Assembly (NCBI GenBank): GCA_965223325.1
Contig: CBDCWI010000002.1
Span: forward strand, 712,351-776,350
Direction of reading: 5' to 3'
Origin: Candidatus Multivoradales bacterium
Lineage (GTDB): Bacteria > Acidobacteriota > Thermoanaerobaculia > Multivoradales > Multivoraceae
Length of the DNA stretch: 64,000 nt
Of the stretch, positions 4,668 through 44,112 are shown in pieces; position 1 is the first letter of the stretch; every line of letters starts with the position of its first letter. A model generated the notes under the pieces. That model did no database searches. It was not told where the DNA came from and worked only from the letters and a program-made list of their open reading frames with translations. The position numbers were made by a program, and so were the translations under genes.

Positions 4668-6236
4668 CTAGGAACGCGCAGCGCCGCGCAGCTCGCGGCG
4701 CAGAATCTTGCCCACCCCGCTCTTGGGCAGCGCGTCCACGAACTGAATGGCGGAAGGTGCCTTGAAGGGCATGGTGTGCTCCTTCACGAACCCGACGAGC
4801 TCGGCCTCTGTCGCTTGGGCGCCGCCCTTGAGGGCCACGAAGCCCACGACCTTTTCACCATAGGTCTCATCCGGCGCGCCGACAATGGCAGCCTCGGCGA
4901 CCGCGGGATGCTGATAGAGAATGCTTTCGAGCTCGGCCGGGTAGATGTTCTCGCCGCCTTTGATGATCATGTCCTTCTTGCGGTCAACGATGAACAGAAA
5001 ACCTTCTTCGTCGAGATACCCCACGTCGCCGGTGTGCAGCCAGCCGCCCTGAATGGCCTCGGCTGTCGCCTCGGGACGGTTCATGTACCCCATCATGACG
5101 GTCGGCCCCTTGAGAACCACTTCACCACGCTCCCCCGCCGGCAGGACCGCGCCAGAATCGTCGACGATGCGAAGTTCAGTCTCCGAGTACGCGCGCCCCG
5201 CCGAGCCGGGCCTGTACGCGTCGGACGGGCGATTGGCGCTCGCGATGCCGGCGCTTTCGGTCATGCCATAGATCTCACGCAACCGGCAGCCGTAGCGCGC
5301 GGCGAAGGCGTTGGCCAGTTCCACCGGCAACGGCGCCGCCCCGCAAACGACCTCTTCAAGACTCGACAGGTCGTACTCGGCGTTCTTCGGATGGTTGAGA
5401 ATCAGCGCCAGCATCGTCGGCACCGCCGGCATCGAACTGCAGCGGTGCTCCTCGACGAGGGCCATGAAACGCTCGGGCTCGAACCAGCTCATTTGCACCA
5501 TGTAGCCATCTGCCAGACGCTCGGGCACCAGGTAGCCACCGTTCATCACCCCGACTCCGAAGATGTGGGCCATCGGCATCGCAGAGATGCTGATGCGCGG
5601 AGCCTCGAGCGTCTCGAGCTCGGCAGCATCGGCCGACTGACGCGCAGAAGCGATCAGGTTTCCATGCGACAGCATGGCGCCCTTCGGTCGGCCCGTGGTG
5701 CCCGAGGTGTACAGCATGAGCGCGAGATCGTCTTCGGGAATCTCCGGCAGCTCGGTGCGCGGTTGGTGAGCGAGGAGCTCGGCCAGCGAAACTTCCGTCA
5801 CTGCCCGGGCCAGGGACTCTCCGCCGTCACTCGTGACGTTCTTGGCATCGCGGATCACGATCAGCTCGATCGCGGGAAGCTCCTGGGCCACCTGACGCAC
5901 CTTCTCCAGGTTCGCCGCATCGGTGAACACGCAACGGGCTCGCGTGTCGTCGAGAATGAACTGCAACTCTGGCGGCGCCAGCTGTGGCATCACCGGCAGC
6001 GCCGCGGCACCGGTGCGAAAGACACCCTGGAAGACCGGGTAGACGTCCGGGTGGTTCGTCAGACACAACGCCGCGATATCGCCGCGGCCAATGCCCCGTT
6101 CCGCGAGACCGGCGTGCAGCCGCCGTGCACGCTCCAGGAACTGCTTGTTGGAGTAACTCTCGCCCTCGAAGACCAACGTTCGGCGTTCTCCGAGGCGCTC
6201 GAGCGAGCTTTCGGCGAGCGTCGCCAGATTGTTCAT
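4668..6236 (-). CDS. Long-chain fatty-acid/acyl-CoA ligase (AMP-binding)
   Basis: YTSGTTGRPKG, YGMTE, GWLHTGD, DRKKDMII and LPKSGVGK motifs. The ATG overlaps the upstream stop (ATGA at 6233-6236). Confidence 0.95.
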   Translation of the reverse strand: MNNLATLAESSLERLGERRTLVFEGESYSNKQFLERARRLHAGLAERGIGRGDIAALCLTNHPDVYPVFQGVFRTGAAALPVMPQLAPPELQFILDDTRARCVFTDAANLEKVRQVAQELPAIELIVIRDAKNVTSDGGESLARAVTEVSLAELLAHQPRTELPEIPEDDLALMLYTSGTTGRPKGAMLSHGNLIASARQSADAAELETLEAPRISISAMPMAHIFGVGVMNGGYLVPERLADGYMVQMSWFEPERFMALVEEHRCSSMPAVPTMLALILNHPKNAEYDLSSLEEVVCGAAPLPVELANAFAARYGCRLREIYGMTESAGIASANRPSDAYRPGSAGRAYSETELRIVDDSGAVLPAGERGEVVLKGPTVMMGYMNRPEATAEAIQGGWLHTGDVGYLDEEGFLFIVDRKKDMIIKGGENIYPAELESILYQHPAVAEAAIVGAPDETYGEKVVGFVALKGGAQATEAELVGFVKEHTMPFKAPSAIQFVDALPKSGVGKILRRELRGAARS

Positions 6237-9437: not shown

Positions 9438-9526
9438 CGAGGGGCGCGGTCGTCAACGATTTGGTCGTCGGTTGGCGTACCTCGAGCAAGATGCATGGTT
9501 GGCGTTCGTACCACACCCCTCGCTAC
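9434..9526. repeat. GTAG-type REP-like inverted pair
   Basis: gtagcgaggggcgcggt (9434-9450) versus the reverse complement of 9510-9526 (gtagcgaggggtgtggt). Confidence 0.65.
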
Positions 9527-9527
9527 A

Positions 9528-10009
9528 GTCACCCTTGCGGCGATCGCGGTCCGGTGTGTCGGCCGCCTTCGTGGGCGCTCGCCCTGCAGGTGCGTCTTTG
9601 GACTTTGAAGGTCCGGCGCGCGCCGCGGATTCTTGGCTTCGTTGCCGCGCTCTACGCGTCCGGAAATGGAGTCCTTTCGCATCGTGCCTGCTGACCTTGA
9701 GGGAACAGTGCGCGTCGCGGGTTCTGGCCTTCGTTGCCACGCTCTGCGCGTCCGGACATGGAGTCCTTGTGCATCGCAAATGAAGGAGTGCGTTCGGGGC
9801 AACTAACCAACCCGGCCGCGGCGGCGGGCAGCACACTCCGGCGAAAAGGTGTCAACCGGCCGTTCGCCAGGAAACCCATGCTCCCTACGCGTTCTCACGA
9901 TCCACGTTTCATCGAAGGCAAGAATCCGCGGCGCGCGCTCGAACCCTCGAACGCCAAAGACGCGCCGGCAGGGCGAGCGCCCACAAAGGCCGCCCCCACA
10001 ACGGACCGC
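9528..10009. repeat. Mosaic of repeated units: roughly 110-bp inverted repeat (9528-9641 versus 9913-10009 plus 11923-11937) and 92-bp-period direct repeat (9618-9684 versus 9710-9776)
   Basis: By-eye alignment shows long shared strings such as gtgggcgctcgccctgc, cgcgcgccgcggattctt and gcgtccgga.atggagtcctt. Confidence 0.9.
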
Positions 10010-10013
10010 TTGG

Positions 10014-11922
10014 ATACGCCGGGATAAACCGGCATGGAGAAAGGAATGAGAGAGTCCCACCCTCGAAGGGGTAGCGACCCAGAGGGTCCCCGAGTCATGC
10101 GCCGGCTCCCGCGAGGGTGCGGTGAAGCGTTGACAGGGGCACACACAGGCCGGGTATTGAGCCGCGAAATAAGAATTTGGGAGTGCCGACGCTGTCAAGC
10201 GAAGCGGAAGGCGAGACTCCGTAGCGCGCTATCGCGAGCTCTGCGGCGACTCCCCGCGGTCGTAGACCCTGTGCATGTGTGGAATCTCCATGCGCGAGAA
10301 CCGGGAGATCCGCGATCTGGCCAGTTGGGTATCTGGTCCGCATCGGGAAGGCTAGAGGCCGTAAGCCGATGACGCACGGATGGCGGAAGTCAGACAGGCC
10401 CGTAGTACCTGCGAAGTCGTCGAACAACGGTGGGAGACCAGCGGCGGAGGCGGTGGAGGGAAGGGGCCTGGCCAAGGGGAACACGGGCAAGCAAAACGCA
10501 CCCCGGACACAGAGCCGGATGGAGAGTGCGAGCAATGCGCTGGGTCGTGTACGAGAAGCCGCCCGCAGGGGCAAGGAAGTGAAGTTCACAGCGCTTCTTC
10601 ACCACATCACGGTCGAGCGACTCCGGAGCGCATTTGACGTGTTGCACCGAGACGCAGCGGCAGGAGTGGACGGAGTGTCATGGAGCGAGTACGCAGAATC
10701 TTTGCTGAGCAATCTCGAGGACCTGCACTCTCGTGTCCACCGTGGGAGCTACCGGGCGAGTGCGACTCGTCGCGTCTACATCGAGAAATCGGATGGGCGG
10801 TTCCGACCGCTTGGCATCGCCACGTTGGAGGACAAGATCCTTCAGCGCGCCGTCGTCTCGGTGTTGGATGCGATCTACGAGGAAGACTTTCTCGGGTACT
10901 CATACGGATTCAGGCGAGGCCGCAGCCAGCACGATGCTTTGGATGCGCTATTCGTTGGAATCACAAAGCGGAAGGTGAACTGGGTGCTCGACGCAGACAT
11001 TCGTGGGTTCTTCGATGCCCTGGACCACGAGTGGCTGGTGAAGTTTCTCGAGCACCGTATCGGAGACCGTAGGATCCTTCGCCTCATCCAGAAATGGCTG
11101 AGGTCCGGAGTGATGGAAGACGGTAAGTGGCACGCGAGCACGCGGGGGACTCCTCAGGGGGCGACGATTTCGCCTCTCCTCGGGAACGTGTACCTGCACT
11201 ACGTGCTCGATCTCTGGGTCCAGCAGTGGAGGAAACGCAACGCGCTTGGGGACATGATCTTCGTGCGCTACGCGGATGACTTCATCGTTGGATTTGAGAG
11301 GCAGGAGGAGGCAGAACGATTCCTCGAGGAACTGAACCTGCGACTCCGTGACTTCTCGTTGGAGATCCAACCCGAGAAGACGCGCCTGCTGGAGTTTGGC
11401 CGCTTTGCGGCCTACAACCGACGCGCGCGAGGTCTCGGGCGGCCGGAGACCTTCGAGTTTCTAGGCTTTACGCACTGCTGTGCGCAGTCTAGTCGAGGGA
11501 GGTTCTTGCTGAAGCGCATCACGAGCCGCCACCGAATCCGCAGGACACTGAAGGCTGTCGGTACGGCCCTTCTGGGACACCGACACTCGCCGCTACCAGA
11601 GCAAGGTCTCTGGCTGGGATCCGTGGTGCGAGGCTTCAATGCCTACTACGGCGTACCCGGCAACTCAGCGGCGTTGAACGCCTTTCGACAGGAGGTCATT
11701 CGGCACTGGATGCGCGCTCTGCGCCGACGCAGTGACAAAGACCGCACGTCCTGGAAACGGATGTGGGCCCTGGTGGCCCACTACCTACCCAAAGCCCGAG
11801 TCCAACATCCCTGGCCTGATGAGCGACTTGTCGTCAATACCTGAGGCAGGAGCCCAGTGCATTAGCAGTGCACGCTGGGATCTGTGCGGGGGGCGCCGGG
11901 CAACCGGCGCTCCTACCGCGAT
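10014..11922 (+). mobile_element. Group II intron (endonuclease-less; resembles bacterial class E, class assignment is inference)
   Basis: Domain V gAGCccagtgc...gcACgctgggatc with AGC triad at 11851-11853, domain VI ending ctaccgcgAT at 11922, an RT ORF, and an intron-like 5' region (ccgg-gataaa-ccggcatggag...gagccgcgaaa...gaccctgtgcatg...gaaccgggagatcc). The 5' boundary is uncertain by 1-3 nt. Confidence 0.92.
10369..11844 (+). CDS. ltrA: Group II intron reverse transcriptase/maturase
   Basis: AAGVDG, RRVYIEKSDG..RPLGI..LEDK, SYGFR.GRSQHDAL, VLDADIRGFFD, GTPQGATISPLLGNVYLH, RYADDF and FLGF motifs; domain X ends HPWP; no HNH/En domain. Confidence 0.97.
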   Translation: MTHGWRKSDRPVVPAKSSNNGGRPAAEAVEGRGLAKGNTGKQNAPRTQSRMESASNALGRVREAARRGKEVKFTALLHHITVERLRSAFDVLHRDAAAGVDGVSWSEYAESLLSNLEDLHSRVHRGSYRASATRRVYIEKSDGRFRPLGIATLEDKILQRAVVSVLDAIYEEDFLGYSYGFRRGRSQHDALDALFVGITKRKVNWVLDADIRGFFDALDHEWLVKFLEHRIGDRRILRLIQKWLRSGVMEDGKWHASTRGTPQGATISPLLGNVYLHYVLDLWVQQWRKRNALGDMIFVRYADDFIVGFERQEEAERFLEELNLRLRDFSLEIQPEKTRLLEFGRFAAYNRRARGLGRPETFEFLGFTHCCAQSSRGRFLLKRITSRHRIRRTLKAVGTALLGHRHSPLPEQGLWLGSVVRGFNAYYGVPGNSAALNAFRQEVIRHWMRALRRRSDKDRTSWKRMWALVAHYLPKARVQHPWPDERLVVNT

Positions 11923-11938
11923 CGCCGCAAAGGTGACG

Positions 11939-11976
11939 CTCGTAGGGCCCGTGGTAAGAAGCACGGGCCCTACGAG
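11939..11976. repeat. Perfect 15-bp GTAG-containing hairpin (REP-like) just downstream of the intron
   Basis: ctcgtagggcccgtg-gtaagaag-cacgggccctacgag. Confidence 0.8.
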
Positions 11977-14674: not shown

Positions 14675-15112
14675 TTGACCCTGGCGCCCTGGGAGCCAGA
14701 GAATGCTGCGGTGAATCCCGACTCTGTCTCGCCCGTGGAGCACTCGACAGCAACAGTCTCGACGGCTGAGGATACGCTCGGCAAGAGCGGCTACGGCAAC
14801 CTTCGCGACCTCGCCCTTCCGGTCCTGGTCTCGTCGTGTAGCAACATCGTGCTGGCGTGGCTCTACCTGCGTTCAGGCTGCCTAGGACTCGTCCTGACCG
14901 GTCCTATGGTCCTGCTCGCCGTCCAGGAGTTTCTGTACTTTGGGCACCTACCCCGAGAGGGGTACGAAGAGTTGAAGCGGCGCGGTCGCCTGATCGGGCT
15001 GTTCGAGCTCGGGATCGGGGTCTTCAACCCCGTGGCGTTCGTTTGCGGCGTCCTGCTTCTACTCGCCCTGCGGCGGAGGGCTCGGTCAGCCCAGCCAGCG
15101 TCGGCAACCTAG
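14675..15112 (+). CDS. Hypothetical small membrane protein (start uncertain, possibly GTG 14711)
   Basis: Three or four hydrophobic segments. Its stop TAG is part of the CTAG flanking the 158-bp element. Confidence 0.55.
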
Positions 15113-15270
15113 TACCCCGTACCATTGGAACGGATAGTGGCTGAGTGGATGATCGTGCTCGATATCAAGGCGTCACGACGCAGGCATATTGGTCTTCTGT
15201 CGAGGAGTGACAACGCAGAGATCGAGTGCGAGGAACGCTCAGACGCTGTGCGGTTCAATGGTACGGGGTA
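15113..15270. mobile_element. 158-bp inverted-repeat-bounded non-coding element (MITE-like), copy 1
   Basis: Perfect 15-bp TIR TACCCCGTACCATTG/CAATGGTACGGGGTA, flanked on both sides by CTAG (15109-15112 and 15271-15274). Confidence 0.85.
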
Positions 15271-15274
15271 CTAG

Positions 15275-15432
15275 TGCATCGTCCCCGAAGTTCGGGCACG
15301 ACAGCGGAAGTCAGTTTCGTTCGTTGTCCAGGCGCCAGGAGGCAGGAATACTGGGAATCTGTCGACGACCGGCAACGACGGCAGGGGGCGAAAGAGGCCG
15401 CGGGGTGGTGCGCGAACTTCGGAAACGATGCA
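15275..15432. mobile_element. 158-bp inverted-repeat-bounded non-coding element (MITE-like), copy 2
   Basis: TIR TGCATCGTCCCCGAAGTTCG / CGAACTTCGGAAACGATGCA (18/20, extendable), flanked by CTAG and CCAG. The core is homologous to copy 1 at identical offsets. Confidence 0.85.
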
Positions 15433-15480
15433 CCAGACCCGGGCTGCTAGAGTCTCCTCGCGCAAGAGCGGCCTGGACCT

Positions 15481-17766
15481 ATGCAGCGGCCACCAGCTGA
15501 GAACGCTCGTCGCCATTCCCCCATGCTTCCCTCCGCTCTTCGATGGGCGCGTTCAGGTCTCGAGTTGACCTGCGCCGCCGCTACCACCCTCGGCCTGCTT
15601 GCCGCCTTGTGTTCACCCGTCTCCGCTGCCGGCCTCGGCAGCCGGCAGAGTCCAATGAGCGCGCCGCCGAGCATCGCCGCTCTGCACACAGAAGACGACC
15701 TGCGCGTCGACGGTGTCTTTGACGAAGCCGCCTGGAGCACCGCAATGGCCGGCGGTGGCTTTGTCCAGCACGATCCCTACGACGGTGTACCCGCCACCGA
15801 GGATACCGAGATCCGCGTGCTGTACACGTCCTCGACGCTCTACGTCGCGGTCATCGCCCACGACTCTAAGCCGGAAGCAATCACGGCGCGCGAAATGTCG
15901 CGCGACGGGGCACTGCGGCGCGACGACAGCATCATCCTTTTACTCGACACGTTCCACGACGGCCGCAATGCCTACTTCTTCGAAACCAATCCCAACGGCG
16001 CCCGCGGTGATGCTCTGATCACTGACGAAGGTCGCGACGTGAACTTCGAGTGGGACGGCATCTGGGCGGTGGCATCACGCACCACTGCCACCGGCTGGCA
16101 GGCCGAGTTCGCGATTCCCTTCTCTACCCTGCGCTACGAACCCGGCCTCGAAACCTGGGGTCTCCAGGTGTCACGCCAGGTTCAGCGCTTGCGCGAGGAG
16201 AGCTTCTGGGCACCGGCGCCGCGCGAGGCCGACGTCTTCCGCATGTCACTGGCCGGAGACCTGACGGGTATCGACTTGCGCTCGCCCTCGCGACAGCTCG
16301 ATGTCAAGCCGTACATCGTTGCCGCGGCTCGCCAGGACGAGGAAACGGACACCTCGAGCGAAGACGCCGATCTCGGCCTCGACATCAAATGGGGAATCAC
16401 CCGAGGACTCACCCTCGATCTGACCTACAACACCGACTTCGCGGAGGTCGAAGTCGACGACCAGCGCGTCAACCTGACGCGTTTCTCCCTCTTCTTTCCC
16501 GAGAAGCGTGAGTTCTTCCTCGAGAACGCCGGCATCTTCGAGTTTGGCCAGCGCAGCGGTCGCCGGAGCTTTGGTTCACCACTGCTCAAGATCTTCTTCT
16601 CTCGCCGTATCGGTCTGGTCGACGGCGAACGGGTTCCCATCGAGTGGGGTACCCGACTCACCGGCCGAATGGGCGAGTGGAGTCTCGGGGTACTGGACGT
16701 ACAGACCGACAGTCTGGTGACCGAGGAGCTCGATATCTTCGGCGAAACCAACTTCGGCGTCGTGCGAGTCAAGCGCAACCTCGGTGAGCGCTCGAGTATT
16801 GGTGCGATCTACACCCGTCGCTCCGAACGTGGCGCCGCAGACAACCAGGTCTACGGCATCGACGCCGACTGGAACCCCACCGATCGCATCAATGTCAACG
16901 GTTTCTTCGCCCAGAGCGACGACGACGACCTCCGCACCAGCGACGACACCGCGGTTGGTGCGAAGGCGAGCTTCGAGGGCCGTGAGCTCACTGCTGGGCT
17001 CGAGGTGCAACAGATCGAGGGTGACTTCAACCCCGAGGTGGGCTTTCTCTTGCGCGAAGACATCAGGCGCTACAAACCGCAGATCGAGTGGAACCCGCGG
17101 ATCGAGAAAGCCGGCATCAGGTCCCTCTCTTTCGAGATCCAATCCGAGTACGTCGAGAAGATCGACGGACCGCTCGAGTCTCACAACCTAGAACTCACAT
17201 ACTTCGGCGTACGCACCTTCAAGAACGACGGCTTCCGCCTGCGCATCGAGCGTGACGACGAGCGCCTCTTCGAAGAGTTCGAGATCTCGGACGGAGTCAT
17301 CATTGCGCCCGGCCGCTACACGTCCGATCCGCGGTTCGGCATCTTCGGTTTCACCAGCGAGGCGCGGCTCTTTTCCATGCGCGGAGGCCTCGAGCGTGGT
17401 GGCTTCCTGAGCGGTGACCGCGACAGCGTGTTCCTGCGTCTCGCCGCCCGGCCTTCGAAGTTCTTCCGCGCCTCCACTGGCTACTCCTACAACATGGTGG
17501 ATCTTCCAGAAGGCCAGTTCAGCACCCACGTCGTCAACCAACGGTTCGACGTGTCGTTCACGCCCGACCTCTTGTGGAACAGTACCGTGCAGTGGAACGA
17601 TGCGAACGACACGCTGGGAATCAACCTGCGCTTGAACTGGATCTATCGCCCAGGAGCCGACCTGTTCGTCGTCTACAACCAGACCTGGGACACCCCAGCC
17701 GGTGCCACCACCACAACGCGTGATCGCGCCTTCCTGGTGAAGTTCACCTATCTGTTCCGCGGCTAG
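15481..17766 (+). CDS. CBM9-like sugar-binding plus DUF5916 outer-membrane beta-barrel protein
   Basis: Signal peptide, VDGVFDEAAW, DTFHDGRNAYFFETNPNG, LDLTYNTDFAEVEVD..VNLTRFSLFFPEKREFFLE, C-terminal KFTYLF. The start may be 15523. Confidence 0.85.
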   Translation: MQRPPAENARRHSPMLPSALRWARSGLELTCAAATTLGLLAALCSPVSAAGLGSRQSPMSAPPSIAALHTEDDLRVDGVFDEAAWSTAMAGGGFVQHDPYDGVPATEDTEIRVLYTSSTLYVAVIAHDSKPEAITAREMSRDGALRRDDSIILLLDTFHDGRNAYFFETNPNGARGDALITDEGRDVNFEWDGIWAVASRTTATGWQAEFAIPFSTLRYEPGLETWGLQVSRQVQRLREESFWAPAPREADVFRMSLAGDLTGIDLRSPSRQLDVKPYIVAAARQDEETDTSSEDADLGLDIKWGITRGLTLDLTYNTDFAEVEVDDQRVNLTRFSLFFPEKREFFLENAGIFEFGQRSGRRSFGSPLLKIFFSRRIGLVDGERVPIEWGTRLTGRMGEWSLGVLDVQTDSLVTEELDIFGETNFGVVRVKRNLGERSSIGAIYTRRSERGAADNQVYGIDADWNPTDRINVNGFFAQSDDDDLRTSDDTAVGAKASFEGRELTAGLEVQQIEGDFNPEVGFLLREDIRRYKPQIEWNPRIEKAGIRSLSFEIQSEYVEKIDGPLESHNLELTYFGVRTFKNDGFRLRIERDDERLFEEFEISDGVIIAPGRYTSDPRFGIFGFTSEARLFSMRGGLERGGFLSGDRDSVFLRLAARPSKFFRASTGYSYNMVDLPEGQFSTHVVNQRFDVSFTPDLLWNSTVQWNDANDTLGINLRLNWIYRPGADLFVVYNQTWDTPAGATTTTRDRAFLVKFTYLFRG

Positions 17767-18560
17767 CCACTCAGTACCGCGGAGAGAAAGGCGTCGCCGC
17801 CCTCGGTGTGTACGTTGTGGCCAACGCCCGCGAGCACCACCAGGCGCGCGTTCGGAAAGTAGCGGCGAGCCGCCGCAAAGCCCTCGTCGGTGATGTAGTC
17901 CGAGTCACCACCGGCGATGAACTGACATGGCCCCAGGTAGCGATCGTCATCGTCGAGGGGGTTCTCGAAGATCGCCGCCGGTCTCTCTTTCAGAATCTCG
18001 AGTGGAATCGACCACCGGTAGCCGTCTCCCGAGCGCGCCAGGTTGGTGAGGAGAAACAGCCGCGTGGCACGGTCTGGAATCGCCTCCAGTAGCTGTTCCT
18101 CAGCATCGCTGCGGGTTCTGACCTTGGTCAGATCGACGGCCAGGAGAGCGTCGAGGATCTCGGTACCCACCACATAGTCCACCGGTGCAATGTCGAGCAC
18201 CGAGAGGTCAGCGATGCGTTCCCCGACGTCAGAGGCCAGCCGCATGGCGGTTTTGCCACCCATCGAATGCCCAATCAGACGCACTCTTTCGAGGCCCGAC
18301 CCATCGAGGTAGCGGAGCACGTCAGCAGCCATTGCCCGGTAGTCGTGTGGCCGGGCGTGCGGAGAGCGACCGTGGTTTCGCAGGTCGAGAACATGGACCG
18401 GACCGCCGGAAGCCAGCTTGCGCGCCACCGCAACCCAGCTCCGCGACGAGCCGTAGAGCCCGTGCAGCACGACGATGGGCAGGGCGTCGGCGGGCGCATC
18501 GGGCGCCGCCTCGAAGGTTCGCCCGACCAGCTCGACCGGAACGGAACCAGCCTCAGTCAC
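17763..18560 (-). CDS. Alpha/beta-fold esterase (YbfF/ABHD11-like)
   Basis: LHGLYGS, DLRNHGRSPH, GHSMGGK nucleophile and GHNVH motifs. The GTG start overlaps the SDR stop. Confidence 0.9.
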   Translation of the reverse strand: MTEAGSVPVELVGRTFEAAPDAPADALPIVVLHGLYGSSRSWVAVARKLASGGPVHVLDLRNHGRSPHARPHDYRAMAADVLRYLDGSGLERVRLIGHSMGGKTAMRLASDVGERIADLSVLDIAPVDYVVGTEILDALLAVDLTKVRTRSDAEEQLLEAIPDRATRLFLLTNLARSGDGYRWSIPLEILKERPAAIFENPLDDDDRYLGPCQFIAGGDSDYITDEGFAAARRYFPNARLVVLAGVGHNVHTEGGDAFLSAVLSG

Positions 18561-34419: not shown

Positions 34420-34977
34420 TCAGCGACGGATGTGGACCTCGACGCGGCGCGCCTCTTCGAGATCACCACTGCCGGTGGTGAAGAGGGGCTTGCGCAAGTC
34501 GATACGGTCGGCCGGGACCCCGAGCGCGATGAGCTTGGAGCGCACCGAGAGCGCCCGGTTGCGCGCCAGCTCGTCGTTATGGGCGGCGTCACCGGTCGGG
34601 TCGTGATAGCCCGAGACTGCGGTGATGACGTCGTCGTGTTCGCCCATGTAGGCAACGATTTCCGCCAGCGTCGTGTCGACATCAGCCGGCAGGCTGAACT
34701 CGTCGACGTCGAAGTAGACGCGCGCCGTCGGAACCTCCTCGACATCCACCAGCCCGCGCAGCTTGTCAACGAACGACGGGCCTTCAGGCTCCGGTTCGGG
34801 AGCCGGCACGACGGCCGGTGCGGGCGCCGCGGCGACCGCGGTAGTGCCACAGGTGGGACAGTTGCGGCCGCCTGGGCCGTGACCCATGAGCCAGAGGGCG
34901 AGGGTTAGTAGCGCCAGAAGAATGGCGACGGTGAGCCAGATGGTCCTGAAGGAACTGCCTTCTTGATGGTTACTCAT
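34420..34977 (-). CDS. OmpA-family peptidoglycan-binding membrane protein
   Basis: N-terminal TM, Pro/Ala linker, VYFDVD, SGYHDPTG..HNDELARNRA.SV and ARRVE motifs. Confidence 0.9.
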   Translation of the reverse strand: MSNHQEGSSFRTIWLTVAILLALLTLALWLMGHGPGGRNCPTCGTTAVAAAPAPAVVPAPEPEPEGPSFVDKLRGLVDVEEVPTARVYFDVDEFSLPADVDTTLAEIVAYMGEHDDVITAVSGYHDPTGDAAHNDELARNRALSVRSKLIALGVPADRIDLRKPLFTTGSGDLEEARRVEVHIRR

Positions 34978-42823: not shown

Positions 42824-42990
42824 TCCTGGGTTTCCTATCTGACGCCGGACGACCGCAACGACTCCAGGAAACAGTAGGAGGAGCAAGGAATGCAGCGCAA
42901 GGCAAGCGGTGCGAGGGCCGAACCCCTGCCTCGAACACGCAAGAGATAGGGATCGGATTCGATCCCGGGAAGAGAACCGCTGGCCTGCGC

Positions 42991-44112
42991 TCAGTCCCGA
43001 GGTTCTGAGTCGCAGTCCTCGCGGGCAACCAGCGCGGTGCCTGAGGAGTGCGGACCCCTGAGGATCTCGAACATGTCGATCTTGGTATCGCCGTCGTAGT
43101 CGAGCGTGACTGCGCCCATCGAGCCCCATGACGTGCGCGGAAACAGGGGTTCGGTCTTGTCAACGAATGTCTTGCCGGCCTGGTTCTCGTAGTAGTGGTC
43201 GTCGCCTTGCATGTTGAGGAGGAACACGTCGGGATACCGGTCGCGGTTCCAGTCGACGATGAGCGCATCGCCCGACCAGCTGCCGTCGACGAAGCTGACC
43301 TGTTCGGAGACCTCTTCGAACCGCCAACCGCCGAGGTTCTTGTAGAGCCGCGACCGCTCCGTGCGTTCGGGGTAGCGATGACCGGAGAAGGCGTCTTCGC
43401 GCCCGATGTGGTAGCCGCCCGCACCGCGGTTCTCGGTCGTATAGGAGCCTACGACCACCGACAGAATGTCCAGCTGGCCGTCGAGATCGAAGTCGAAGAG
43501 AACCGGCGCCGATGCGTGCCCAACGTAGTCGACTCCGGCCTCGGCTGCGCGTTCGCGGAACCTCCCTTCCCCGAGGTTTTCGAACAGCGCCGTCCCCTGG
43601 CGCACCGTCGTCACCTAGAGGTCAGGGTCTCCGTCGTTGTCGACGTCGCCAAAGGTCGCACTCACACTGATCCGCCCGGACATGTCCACACCGGCGCGAA
43701 CCGTCCAGTTCTCGAAGCGTCCGTTTCCGCGGTTGTGCCACAACTCGTTCGACCCGATCTGGTTCACGAAGTAGAGATCGGGCAGCCCGTCACCATCGAC
43801 ATCGCCCGCCGCCAGGCCGTTGCCGTGGTCCCAGTGGCTCATCTTCCAGTACAGCCCGCCGTCGTCGACGATGCGATGCACAAAGGAAATGCCACTCTCG
43901 TCGATTCGATCGGTAAAGGAAAACCCCGGGGCGATTGGGTTCTCCCGACGCGCGTCTTTCGCCCTCGCGGCAAGCGAGTCAGAAACTTTGTCGCCCTCGG
44001 GCACCCTCCATGTCTGCCAGTCCTGCTGCGCAGAAGCGGCATCGGCCGGCGCCAGAAAAAACGCCCCGGTCACCAACGCTGTCAGCAAAAGATCTCGCGC
44101 CCTCACGGCCAC
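42991..44112 (-). pseudogene. CRTAC1/FG-GAP-repeat protein interrupted by an in-frame TAG (43615-43617) and lacking the ASPIC/UnbV C-terminus
   Basis: GNGLAAGDVDGDGLPDLYFVN, FGDVDNDGDPDL*VTT, FDFDLDGQLD and DWNRDRYPD repeats lie in one frame across the stop. Confidence 0.85.

Follow-up and report, generated by a model that had tools for sequence, protein, structure and literature searches.

Two Tandem Hairpin Elements Upstream of a DUF5916 Gene

We examined a 64,000-nt stretch of contig CBDCWI010000002.1 (assembly GCA_965223325.1) of Candidatus Multivoradales bacterium, a member of the Acidobacteriota, in which two 160-bp palindromic elements lie head to tail between a small membrane-like open reading frame (ORF) and a DUF5916 gene. 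This whole stretch is hereafter called the window, and coordinates count from its first letter (position 1). The upstream ORF (14675–15112, + strand), taken from the ORF list, encodes 145 aa for which no Pfam family was matched; its orthologue in a relative is a small ORF at locus L039 (5631–5921, E = 3e-10). The downstream DUF5916 gene (15481–17766, + strand; Pfam PF19313) starts 45 nt past the second element and is co-oriented with both elements and with the upstream ORF.

The interval between the two genes reads CTAG, 158 bp, CTAG, 158 bp, CCAG (15109–15436), the same layout that an earlier sequence-only reading had described. Unit 1 occupies 15112–15271 and unit 2 occupies 15274–15433, both on the + strand. 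The left CTAG (15109–15112) contains the target TA (15110–15111) as well as the TAG stop codon of the 145-aa ORF (15110–15112), whose T and A are the duplicated target and whose G is the first base of unit 1. The central CTAG (15271–15274) is common to both units, and its TA (15272–15273) serves at once as the right-hand duplication for unit 1 and as the left-hand one for unit 2. The right flank, CCAG (15433–15436), is a CTAG with a T to C change, i.e., a degenerate TA duplication.

Each unit is closed by its own inverted repeat. According to a repeat finder, that of unit 1 has 37-nt arms that are 84% complementary, with the first 15 nt past the CTAG matching perfectly, and that of unit 2 has 32-nt arms (84%), with 18 of 20 positions matching past the tetranucleotide. 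The conserved central domains (15159–15215 in unit 1 and 15321–15377 in unit 2) form a direct repeat (D1) of 57 nt that is 74% identical at a spacing of 162, and they contain the tip motifs GCAGGCATATTGGTCTTCTGTCGA (15180–15203) and GCAGGAATACTGGGAATCTGTCGA (15342–15365), respectively. The figures given previously for the end repeats (15/15 and 18/20), for the agreement between the two left ends (7/15) and for the core (~43/59) were all recovered. Three mechanical ORFs of 74–103 aa run across both elements, at 15189–15500 (+), 15226–15450 (+), and 15271–15516 (−); these arise artefactually from the GC-rich repeat, and an annotation could mistake them for genes.

A Previously Uncatalogued Family of Small Mobile Repeats

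Both units belong to a family of small mobile repeats that had not been catalogued before and that occurs mainly in Thermoanaerobaculia. When 185,579 genomes (one per species) were scanned for exact matches to the tip motif GCAGGNATANTGGNNNTCTGTCGA, 25 loci were returned, 17 of which lie in a single Thermoanaerobaculia chromosome of 6.78 Mb (OY761158.1). The others belong to metagenome-assembled genomes (MAGs) of Acidobacteriota and Thermoanaerobaculales, with single matches in a Deltaproteobacteria MAG and an Amphritea MAG. A scan of metagenomes added 13 loci, and more diverged copies were found within those same loci using nhmmer and a covariance model (R1) built on 11 diverse units. The loci examined, numbered with an L below, contain more than 45 copies in total, including at least 22 in the examined pieces of OY761158.1, where main-subfamily copies share ~85–98% pairwise identity and sit at unrelated loci.

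Within the window, the 36-nt core pattern occurs at two sites only, those of the two units (0 expected). Run without filters over the whole window, the covariance model likewise recovered only these two, at 150.5 and 116 bits, and the score of unit 1 was 150.5 bits on the + strand versus 39.4 on the − strand. A weak match inside a coding region (34665–34818, 16.8 bits) was treated as a generic hairpin.

At the gathering threshold, Rfam 15 placed no family on the element and annotated only a group II intron elsewhere in the window; a scan of the element region at E ≤ 10 gave a best E of 1.2, and scans of four loci from three other lineages returned no family. The unit pair had no blastn match among PLSDB plasmids and INPHARED phages, a pattern scan of viral contigs had none either, and literature searches for such a repeat in Thermoanaerobaculia or Acidobacteria gave nothing specific. 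A coding element was rejected because no reading frame is open across the subfamilies. The distant members L009, L012, and L027 have no conserved neighbor gene and are surrounded by unrelated housekeeping genes. [quoted passage not shown] The earlier suggestion of an undescribed non-autonomous element or structured-RNA family is thus supported by the number of copies and the lack of an Rfam match.

Insertion at TA and Formation of Pairs

C-TA-G...C-TA-G flanks are found family-wide, in nearly all copies, despite the depletion of CTAG (49 sites observed in the window versus 91.5 expected). One outer base differs on the left at L021 (gTAG...CTAg) and on the right at L035 (CTAG...CTAa), TA being kept in both, and at L028, a member of another lineage, the flanks are TA...TA and are not within CTAG. 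Because of these three loci, a TA duplication around a 160-bp G...C element fits better than a 4-bp CTAG duplication; the sequence-only reading had offered both, and the TA version is the one preferred here. In lineage 2 the target duplications are of 3 bp (TGA, TGA, TTA, and ACG). Insertion of IS630 at the TA of CTAG goes back to Tenzen and Ohtsubo 1991, as cited in PMC2170065.

We propose that the element would insert at TA, in lineage 1 almost always at the TA of CTAG, with duplication of the TA. Since the element starts with G and ends with C, CTAG would be regenerated on both sides at each insertion, and a later insertion could therefore land beside an earlier copy, giving tandem or inverted pairs. 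The first base being G, an insertion on a C-TAG stop would also leave the stop intact. Nine of ~35 copies lie exactly on the TAG stop codon of a gene, on either strand, and that of the 145-aa ORF in the window is one of them.

Abutting copies recur at three other loci, in keeping with the idea that the element re-targets its own CTAG and builds tandem arrays. L014 contains a direct pair with a common CTAG, in which a U1-like unit is followed by a main-like unit, as in the window; L023 contains an inverted pair with a common CTAG; and at L032 (lineage 2) a copy abuts a solo end. The L014 pair (4964–5292) is 71.7% identical over 315 bp to that of the window, in a different genome and between unrelated flanks, and a dimer of a U1-like and a main/U2-like unit may move as one unit. 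A look for empty alleles between the membrane ORF and the DUF5916 gene of relatives had been suggested, and the nearest syntenic relative, at locus L039, provides one: it encodes Lon, the orthologous small ORF, and DUF5916, with an 80-nt spacer and without the element. This comparison concerns a single locus in a distant relative (DUF5916 protein 59% identical).

Short pieces of the element were also seen. L015 has a CTAG-flanked 29-bp remnant (2858–2886; CTAGTGTTGTGTCTCCGACATGGCACTAG) in which a left arm of the L004b subfamily is joined to the last right-arm bases, and L016 has a 16-nt solo end (6024–6039); both are internal-deletion or excision remnants of hairpin elements. At L019, a hairpin element of lineage 2 has a tandem array upstream of it (1–993; unit of ~126 bp, copies 82–85% identical to one another), and the right arm of this element is interrupted by another GC-rich hairpin.

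A Predicted Hairpin With Compensatory Changes

On the + strand, unit 1 is predicted to fold into one long imperfect hairpin of −91.7 kcal/mol (z = −9.9) and unit 2 into one of −79.5 kcal/mol (z = −5.5), each with ~70 paired positions; for neither unit was any of 200 shuffles as stable. RNAalifold predicted 63 pairs for the 11 diverse units, of which 41 have compensatory double changes, against 26.7 ± 2.5 in shuffles (0/500 reach 41). Paired cells amount to 93.7%, versus 71.1 ± 1.2 in shuffles and 34–41% in slid registers, and an alignment of lineages 2 and 3 made separately has double changes in 27 of 60 pairs. Covariation so far above the controls supports selection on a folded single strand, as had been proposed from the two window units, and the T-A/C-G internal pair seen to covary between them corresponds to A1 columns 66/104.

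The predicted fold is a rod-like hairpin with a tip composed of the helix GGCAUAUU/AAUcUGUC, a 3-nt CGA bulge, purine-rich internal loops, and AAGGC/AACG loops. In diverged members the tip helix CATATT/AATATG is replaced by CATACC/GGTATG, such that GGCATATT-GGG-AATaTGTC becomes GCATACC-GAG-GGTATG or GGCGTACC-GGA-GGTACGTC. An isolated pair amid the purine-rich loops (A1 columns 72/98) is C-G in five sequences and G-C in five. Known motifs were compared by eye with the tip consensus (K-turn, signal recognition particle RNA, sarcin-ricin loop, hammerhead, IHF site, and sigma-54), and none fits.

The two strands are not equivalent. The − strands of units 1 and 2 fold at −64.7 and −75.2 kcal/mol, and the motif strand gave the better fold in all 21 full-length copies tested and in 11 of 12 further diverged or distant members, by a gap that is mostly 10–40 kcal/mol (~4 for unit 2 and L009; the strands of the truncated L030 tie). 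Across the 11 aligned units, G.U pairs exceed A.C pairs 72:10 by cell and 27:10 by column (binomial p = 0.008), with ratios of 26:4 in the outer shell, 30:3 in the middle shell, and 15:2 in the core, and only ~11:4 in the terminal 20 bp (hand tally of the per-pair table). Several wobbles are retained across subfamilies: A1 columns 77/94 always hold G.U, and at 51/120 and 52/119 the most frequent pair is U.G. Unit 1 has seven G.U pairs and one A.C pair. Unit 2 appears to be an older, decaying copy, because its ratio is 5:5 and its right flank is degenerate.

Neither a double-stranded TIR model nor a templated-repair model predicts the G.U excess and the wobble pairs kept across subfamilies. This bears on a purely DNA-level MITE, in which the arms would be complementary as a side effect of palindrome-templated repair (correction of quasipalindromes, or fold-back synthesis while the element transposes) and the center would be a double-stranded site for a DNA-bending protein or a transposase, aligning the equal arms for synapsis. 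Templated correction would yield Watson-Crick pairs, not a 72:10 excess spread over all shells with wobbles kept in most or all subfamilies, and the C-G/G-C flip at columns 72/98 is unexpected for a double-stranded protein site. Equal arms (68/68) and a fixed length of ~160 bp would go well with a U-turn at the center that brings the ends together, and Correia elements do have a central IHF site; however, no match to the IHF consensus was seen by eye in the core. The decay of resident copies without structural bias and the lack of orientation preference relative to genes (both described below) are what a DNA-level element would give. Taking both sides together, we regard such an element as improbable.

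The strong covariation, the conserved purine-rich internal loops, and the strand asymmetry could also be explained if the elements were structured noncoding RNA genes or cis-regulatory hairpins of the host, multiplied by simple duplication and without mobility of their own. Such genes would hardly exist as dozens of near-identical copies at unrelated loci and genes, in both orientations and between precise CTAG/TA flanks, with some copies abutting or nested in one another; nor would they be expected to be missing from the syntenic locus L039, or to have no predicted promoter or terminator. We therefore consider this origin very improbable indeed.

Replaceable Arms of Fixed Length

The tip motif GCAGGnATAnTGGnnnTCTGTCGA is kept in distant lineages whose arms are unrelated and whose duplications differ (TA or 3 bp). 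Three lineages with unrelated arms (duplications: TA in CTAG; TGA, TGA, TTA, and ACG; and TA) all have elements of 159–162 bp, with left arms of 67–68 nt and right arms of 68–70 nt. Arm length is 67–70 nt in three of the four lineages measured, the exception being L009 (180 bp, 78/78 arms). Identity between subfamilies is concentric: the core is 61–90% identical in all pairs (at least 68% in all but one), the middle shell is of two types, and the outer arms are of at least four types, with identity between subfamilies falling to 21–34%. For instance, identity between the main subfamily and L011 is 34% for the outer arms, 84% for the middle shell, and 90% for the core. Unit 1 belongs to the U1/L014b subfamily, and unit 2 is a composite with outer arms like those of the OY761158.1 main subfamily (66%) and a core like the L011 type (84%).

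The TIRs also fall into subfamilies. Positions G4, G11, T12, and C15 of the CTAG-inclusive unit are invariant in 11 diverse lineage-1 members, giving the terminal 15 bp a conserved skeleton, TA-G......GT..C, and a sequence-reading transposase is possible because this skeleton is kept. The earlier description of a conserved core and diverged ends is borne out, with the refinement that some positions in the ends are themselves conserved. A nested-insertion model, in which the core was put into a TA at the center of different carrier palindromes, was also considered. TA or TAG is often found near a shell boundary, but TA is its own complement, the composites do not differ in length, and no carrier was found empty; the model is possible but not supported.

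Longer variants of 179, 213, 244, and 257 nt have their extra sequence as side branches near the tip, with the basal stem intact, and the 179-nt and 244-nt variants each occur in several copies. Branch variants were located at L013 (2344–2587), L016 (1115–1357), L017 (3251–3494), L025 (6612–6868), and L023 (6320–6532). Their branch of 47–78 nt is placed after GCTGG of the left arm, and the start of the insert, CTAGGAGCCTGCGAAGCAGG, resembles the TIR of an IS1182-family insertion sequence (IS). The possibility that the long variants are the ends of an autonomous IS was rejected, as they are elements of 213–257 nt with a branch near the tip.

The constancy of tip motif and arm length across lineages that differ in arms, termini, and duplications suits another reading, that of a structure-guided mobile hairpin. 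Here the motif strand would form a single-stranded intermediate (DNA or RNA), and an enzyme would bind at the conserved tip, recognizing it together with the geometry of the hairpin, and act ~68 nt away, cutting and joining at the stem base; because it would ignore the terminal sequence, arms, termini, and duplication length would be free to change between lineages. The concentric mosaic of shells points in the same direction, as does a G.U asymmetry that is inherited per lineage, independent of host gene orientation, and not enforced on resident copies. The branched variants count on both sides, since they keep the basal stem and still multiplied, yet change the tip-to-end geometry. If true, this reading would account for the cross-phylum tip, the 159–162-bp size with unrelated arms, the shell mosaic, and the propagation-level G.U bias. 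However, conserved G4, G11, T12, and C15 suggest ends read by sequence, and direct TA or 3-bp duplications are typical of double-stranded DDE transposition, not of HUH/Y1 single-strand transposases. Unlike IS200/IS605, the copies have no orientation bias along the OY761158.1 chromosome, where orientations are mixed within short intervals, and the searches described below revealed no candidate enzyme. We consider a structure-guided hairpin of this kind rather unlikely.

Search for a Mobilizing Enzyme

Pfam detected no transposase among the 30 largest genes of the window, where the only mobile element is a group II intron. A blast search with the TIRs outside the known copies returned only the 29-bp remnant in L015 and the 16-nt fragment in L016, with no extra TIR pair; an all-against-all blast of the loci revealed no multi-copy genes, and Pfam scans of neighboring genes contained no RAYT. 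One autonomous IS, of the IS1182 family, is present in OY761158.1 (L043, 16223–17786; ~2.215–2.2165 Mb of the chromosome). It encodes a 439-aa transposase (NF033551, 364 bits) and has a perfect 20-nt TIR that includes the flanking CTAGs, and its ends are similar to the beginning of the 78-nt branch that the 244-nt variants carry. Directly beside it are two small CTAG-flanked palindromes (17782–17851 and 17940–17979). As the IS and these adjoining palindromes are CTAG-flanked, several unrelated elements of OY761158.1 target CTAG. Concerning IS630, for which TA would be the exclusive duplication, we found TA in lineage 1 and L028, and TGA, TTA, and ACG in lineage 2.

A Probable MITE-Like Transposon Constrained as a Single-Stranded Hairpin

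Overall, we think it probable that the family consists of MITE-like transposons that are non-autonomous and target TA/CTAG, with an interior under constraint as the single-stranded hairpin of one strand. The data show directly that the copies form one family, are numerous and dispersed, prefer a particular target, form tandems, are missing from the syntenic site, carry compensatory changes, and have asymmetric strands and a conserved length. The transposase family, the RNA nature of the folded molecule, and what the tip may bind are inferred. The element would presumably be mobilized in trans by a DDE transposase that reads a few conserved terminal positions. An IS630/Tc1-mariner type is the leading candidate, favored because of the TA-in-CTAG target, and an IS5/IS1182 type would be the alternative. 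Inside the terminal ~20 bp, the constraint would be that of a single-stranded rod hairpin with 67–70-nt arms and a conserved tip. Most likely it is an RNA that adopts this fold, the alternative being a single-stranded DNA intermediate.

Several observations weigh against this interpretation. No autonomous partner with matching ends was found in the ~385 kb of sequence examined, the sole CTAG-flanked IS seen in OY761158.1 (that of L043) has TIRs unrelated to the hairpin family, and the 3-bp duplications of lineage 2 (TGA, TGA, TTA, and ACG) are not IS630-like. No promoter or terminator was predicted inside the element, and copies are randomly oriented relative to flanking genes. By counts from a crude gene caller based on GC content at third codon positions (GC3), the upstream gene of 11 copies is co-oriented, so that its read-through would cover the motif strand, and the downstream gene of 14 converges on the element, so that the complement would be covered. 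Thus, host read-through alone cannot explain a strand-specific RNA fold. Moreover, among private substitutions in 21 main-subfamily copies, seven lead to G.U, seven to A.C, and 18 to other mismatches, and their density is similar at paired and unpaired positions, although the counts are small. Because these substitutions have no G.U bias, the constraint would act on propagating copies and not on each resident copy; this suggests neutral decay of resident copies, with selection on the fold acting through which copies propagate. A role in the life cycle of the element itself seems to fit such a constraint better than does an RNA function at the level of the host. Random orientation relative to host transcription, together with neutral decay of resident copies, therefore leaves room for the reading in which a single-stranded intermediate is recognized by its shape.

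Comparison With Known Repeats

Correia, ERIC, and bcr1 elements were treated as functional analogues only, set apart by their descriptions and host phyla. ERIC/RU-1 (IRU) elements have a conserved central part and are folded when transcribed; the likeness to the present family lies in a whole-length imperfect palindrome with a conserved center. ERIC, which PMC2759123 describes as a 127-bp imperfect palindrome in intergenic positions, differs in having no documented CTAG targeting and no modular arm replacement, as well as in taxon. According to PMC3184786, compensatory changes keep an RNA-level fold in bcr1 of the Bacillus cereus group (~155 bp), and copies lose stability with time. Like our family, bcr1 is small, dispersed, and non-autonomous, is bounded by short direct repeats, and has compensatory changes at the RNA level, but it is cruciform-like, with two independent stem-loops and 5-bp direct repeats, and is restricted to Bacillus, whereas the present elements are single rod hairpins with TA/CTAG flanks in Acidobacteriota. 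The sequence-only reading had presented conserved interiors and diverged ends as the reverse of ordinary MITEs; the pattern is indeed unusual but not unprecedented, small repeats with RNA-level compensatory changes being known from bcr1 as described in PMC3184786.

Correia/NEMIS elements of Neisseria are also MITEs of 100–160 bp with TA duplication, long TIRs, and transcripts that fold into hairpins (in part from PMC3184786). Their TIR is conserved and their interior varies, whereas here the interior is conserved and the arms are replaced, and the phyla differ. IS630/Tc1-mariner elements and their MITEs (Nezha, RUP) resemble the family in TA duplication and in the trans mobilization of short TIR elements, and IS630 itself prefers TA within CTAG, as cited in PMC2170065. 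However, double-stranded cut-and-paste transposition does not predict a strand-specific fold, neither an IS630-type transposase nor a matching TIR was found in the sequence examined, and the sister lineage has 3-bp duplications. REPINs (PMC3116915) are short mobile hairpin repeats in which the hairpin rather than the sequence is preserved within genomes, a point of likeness; in contrast to our family, with its conserved tip and its duplications and with no RAYT seen, their ends (REP) are conserved, their loop is variable, they make no duplication, and they are linked to RAYT.

A REPIN or REP-RAYT element is therefore ruled out by the conserved tip, variable ends, and duplications. An integron attC site was rejected as well, as the ends are TA-G...C-TA without GTTRRRY and the center is conserved, not the ends. 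PATEs derived from IS200/IS605 have separate subterminal hairpins, no TIR or duplication, and an orientation tied to replication direction, and they are ruled out by the one whole-length hairpin with TA flanks and by the mixed orientations. The family belongs to none of bcr1, Correia/NEMIS, ERIC/RU-1, IS630-derived MITEs, and REPINs, and is distinct from all five in its cross-phylum conserved tip, its replaceable arms of fixed length, and its concentric mosaic. Its kind is already known from bcr1, ERIC, and Correia; the present variant is unusually modular and length-constrained.

Other Features of the Window and Related Loci

The closest homologue of the DUF5916 protein in the protein database is 59% identical, and the source genome (a 4.55-Mb contig) has no close relative there. 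DUF5916 genes are strongly multiplied in these Acidobacteriota, with 7,729 database matches at E ≤ 1e-30; in OY761158.1, L042 (10001–17263) has three tandem paralogues of 740, 747, and 743 aa, with hairpin elements nearby.

The group II intron of the window (Rfam RF02005, 10051–10269, 180.6 bits) is accompanied by a reverse-transcriptase ORF (10279–11844). A large palindromic region lies 5′ of the intron (arms 9546–9644 and 9910–10009, 83–93% complementary), and a 46-nt inverted repeat (9505–9550 and 11915–11960, 76%) brackets both the palindromic region and the intron, which may lie inside or beside another palindromic element. Elsewhere, a 32-nt inverted repeat (42897–42928 and 43144–43175), with arms 75% complementary and 215 nt apart, partly overlaps an ORF (42991–43614, − strand), and the model of the hairpin family did not match it.

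Implications

Small palindromic repeats are common in bacterial genomes, and for most of them neither the mobilizing enzyme nor the reason for the fold is known. The family described here is an unusually clean data set in this respect, combining a cross-phylum tip, a fixed arm length, replaceable arms, and a strand-specific wobble signature, and its diverged lineages are numerous enough to tell constraint on sequence from constraint on structure. If propagation requires the fold, this would imply a single-stranded hairpin step in transposition, which has not yet been described for TA-duplicating elements. If the fold instead acts as RNA, the family would be a structured RNA that is widespread in Acidobacteriota, though uncatalogued, with a preference for stop codons and intergenic positions, and adding it to RNA and repeat libraries would avoid mis-annotation such as the spurious ORF at 15189–15500.

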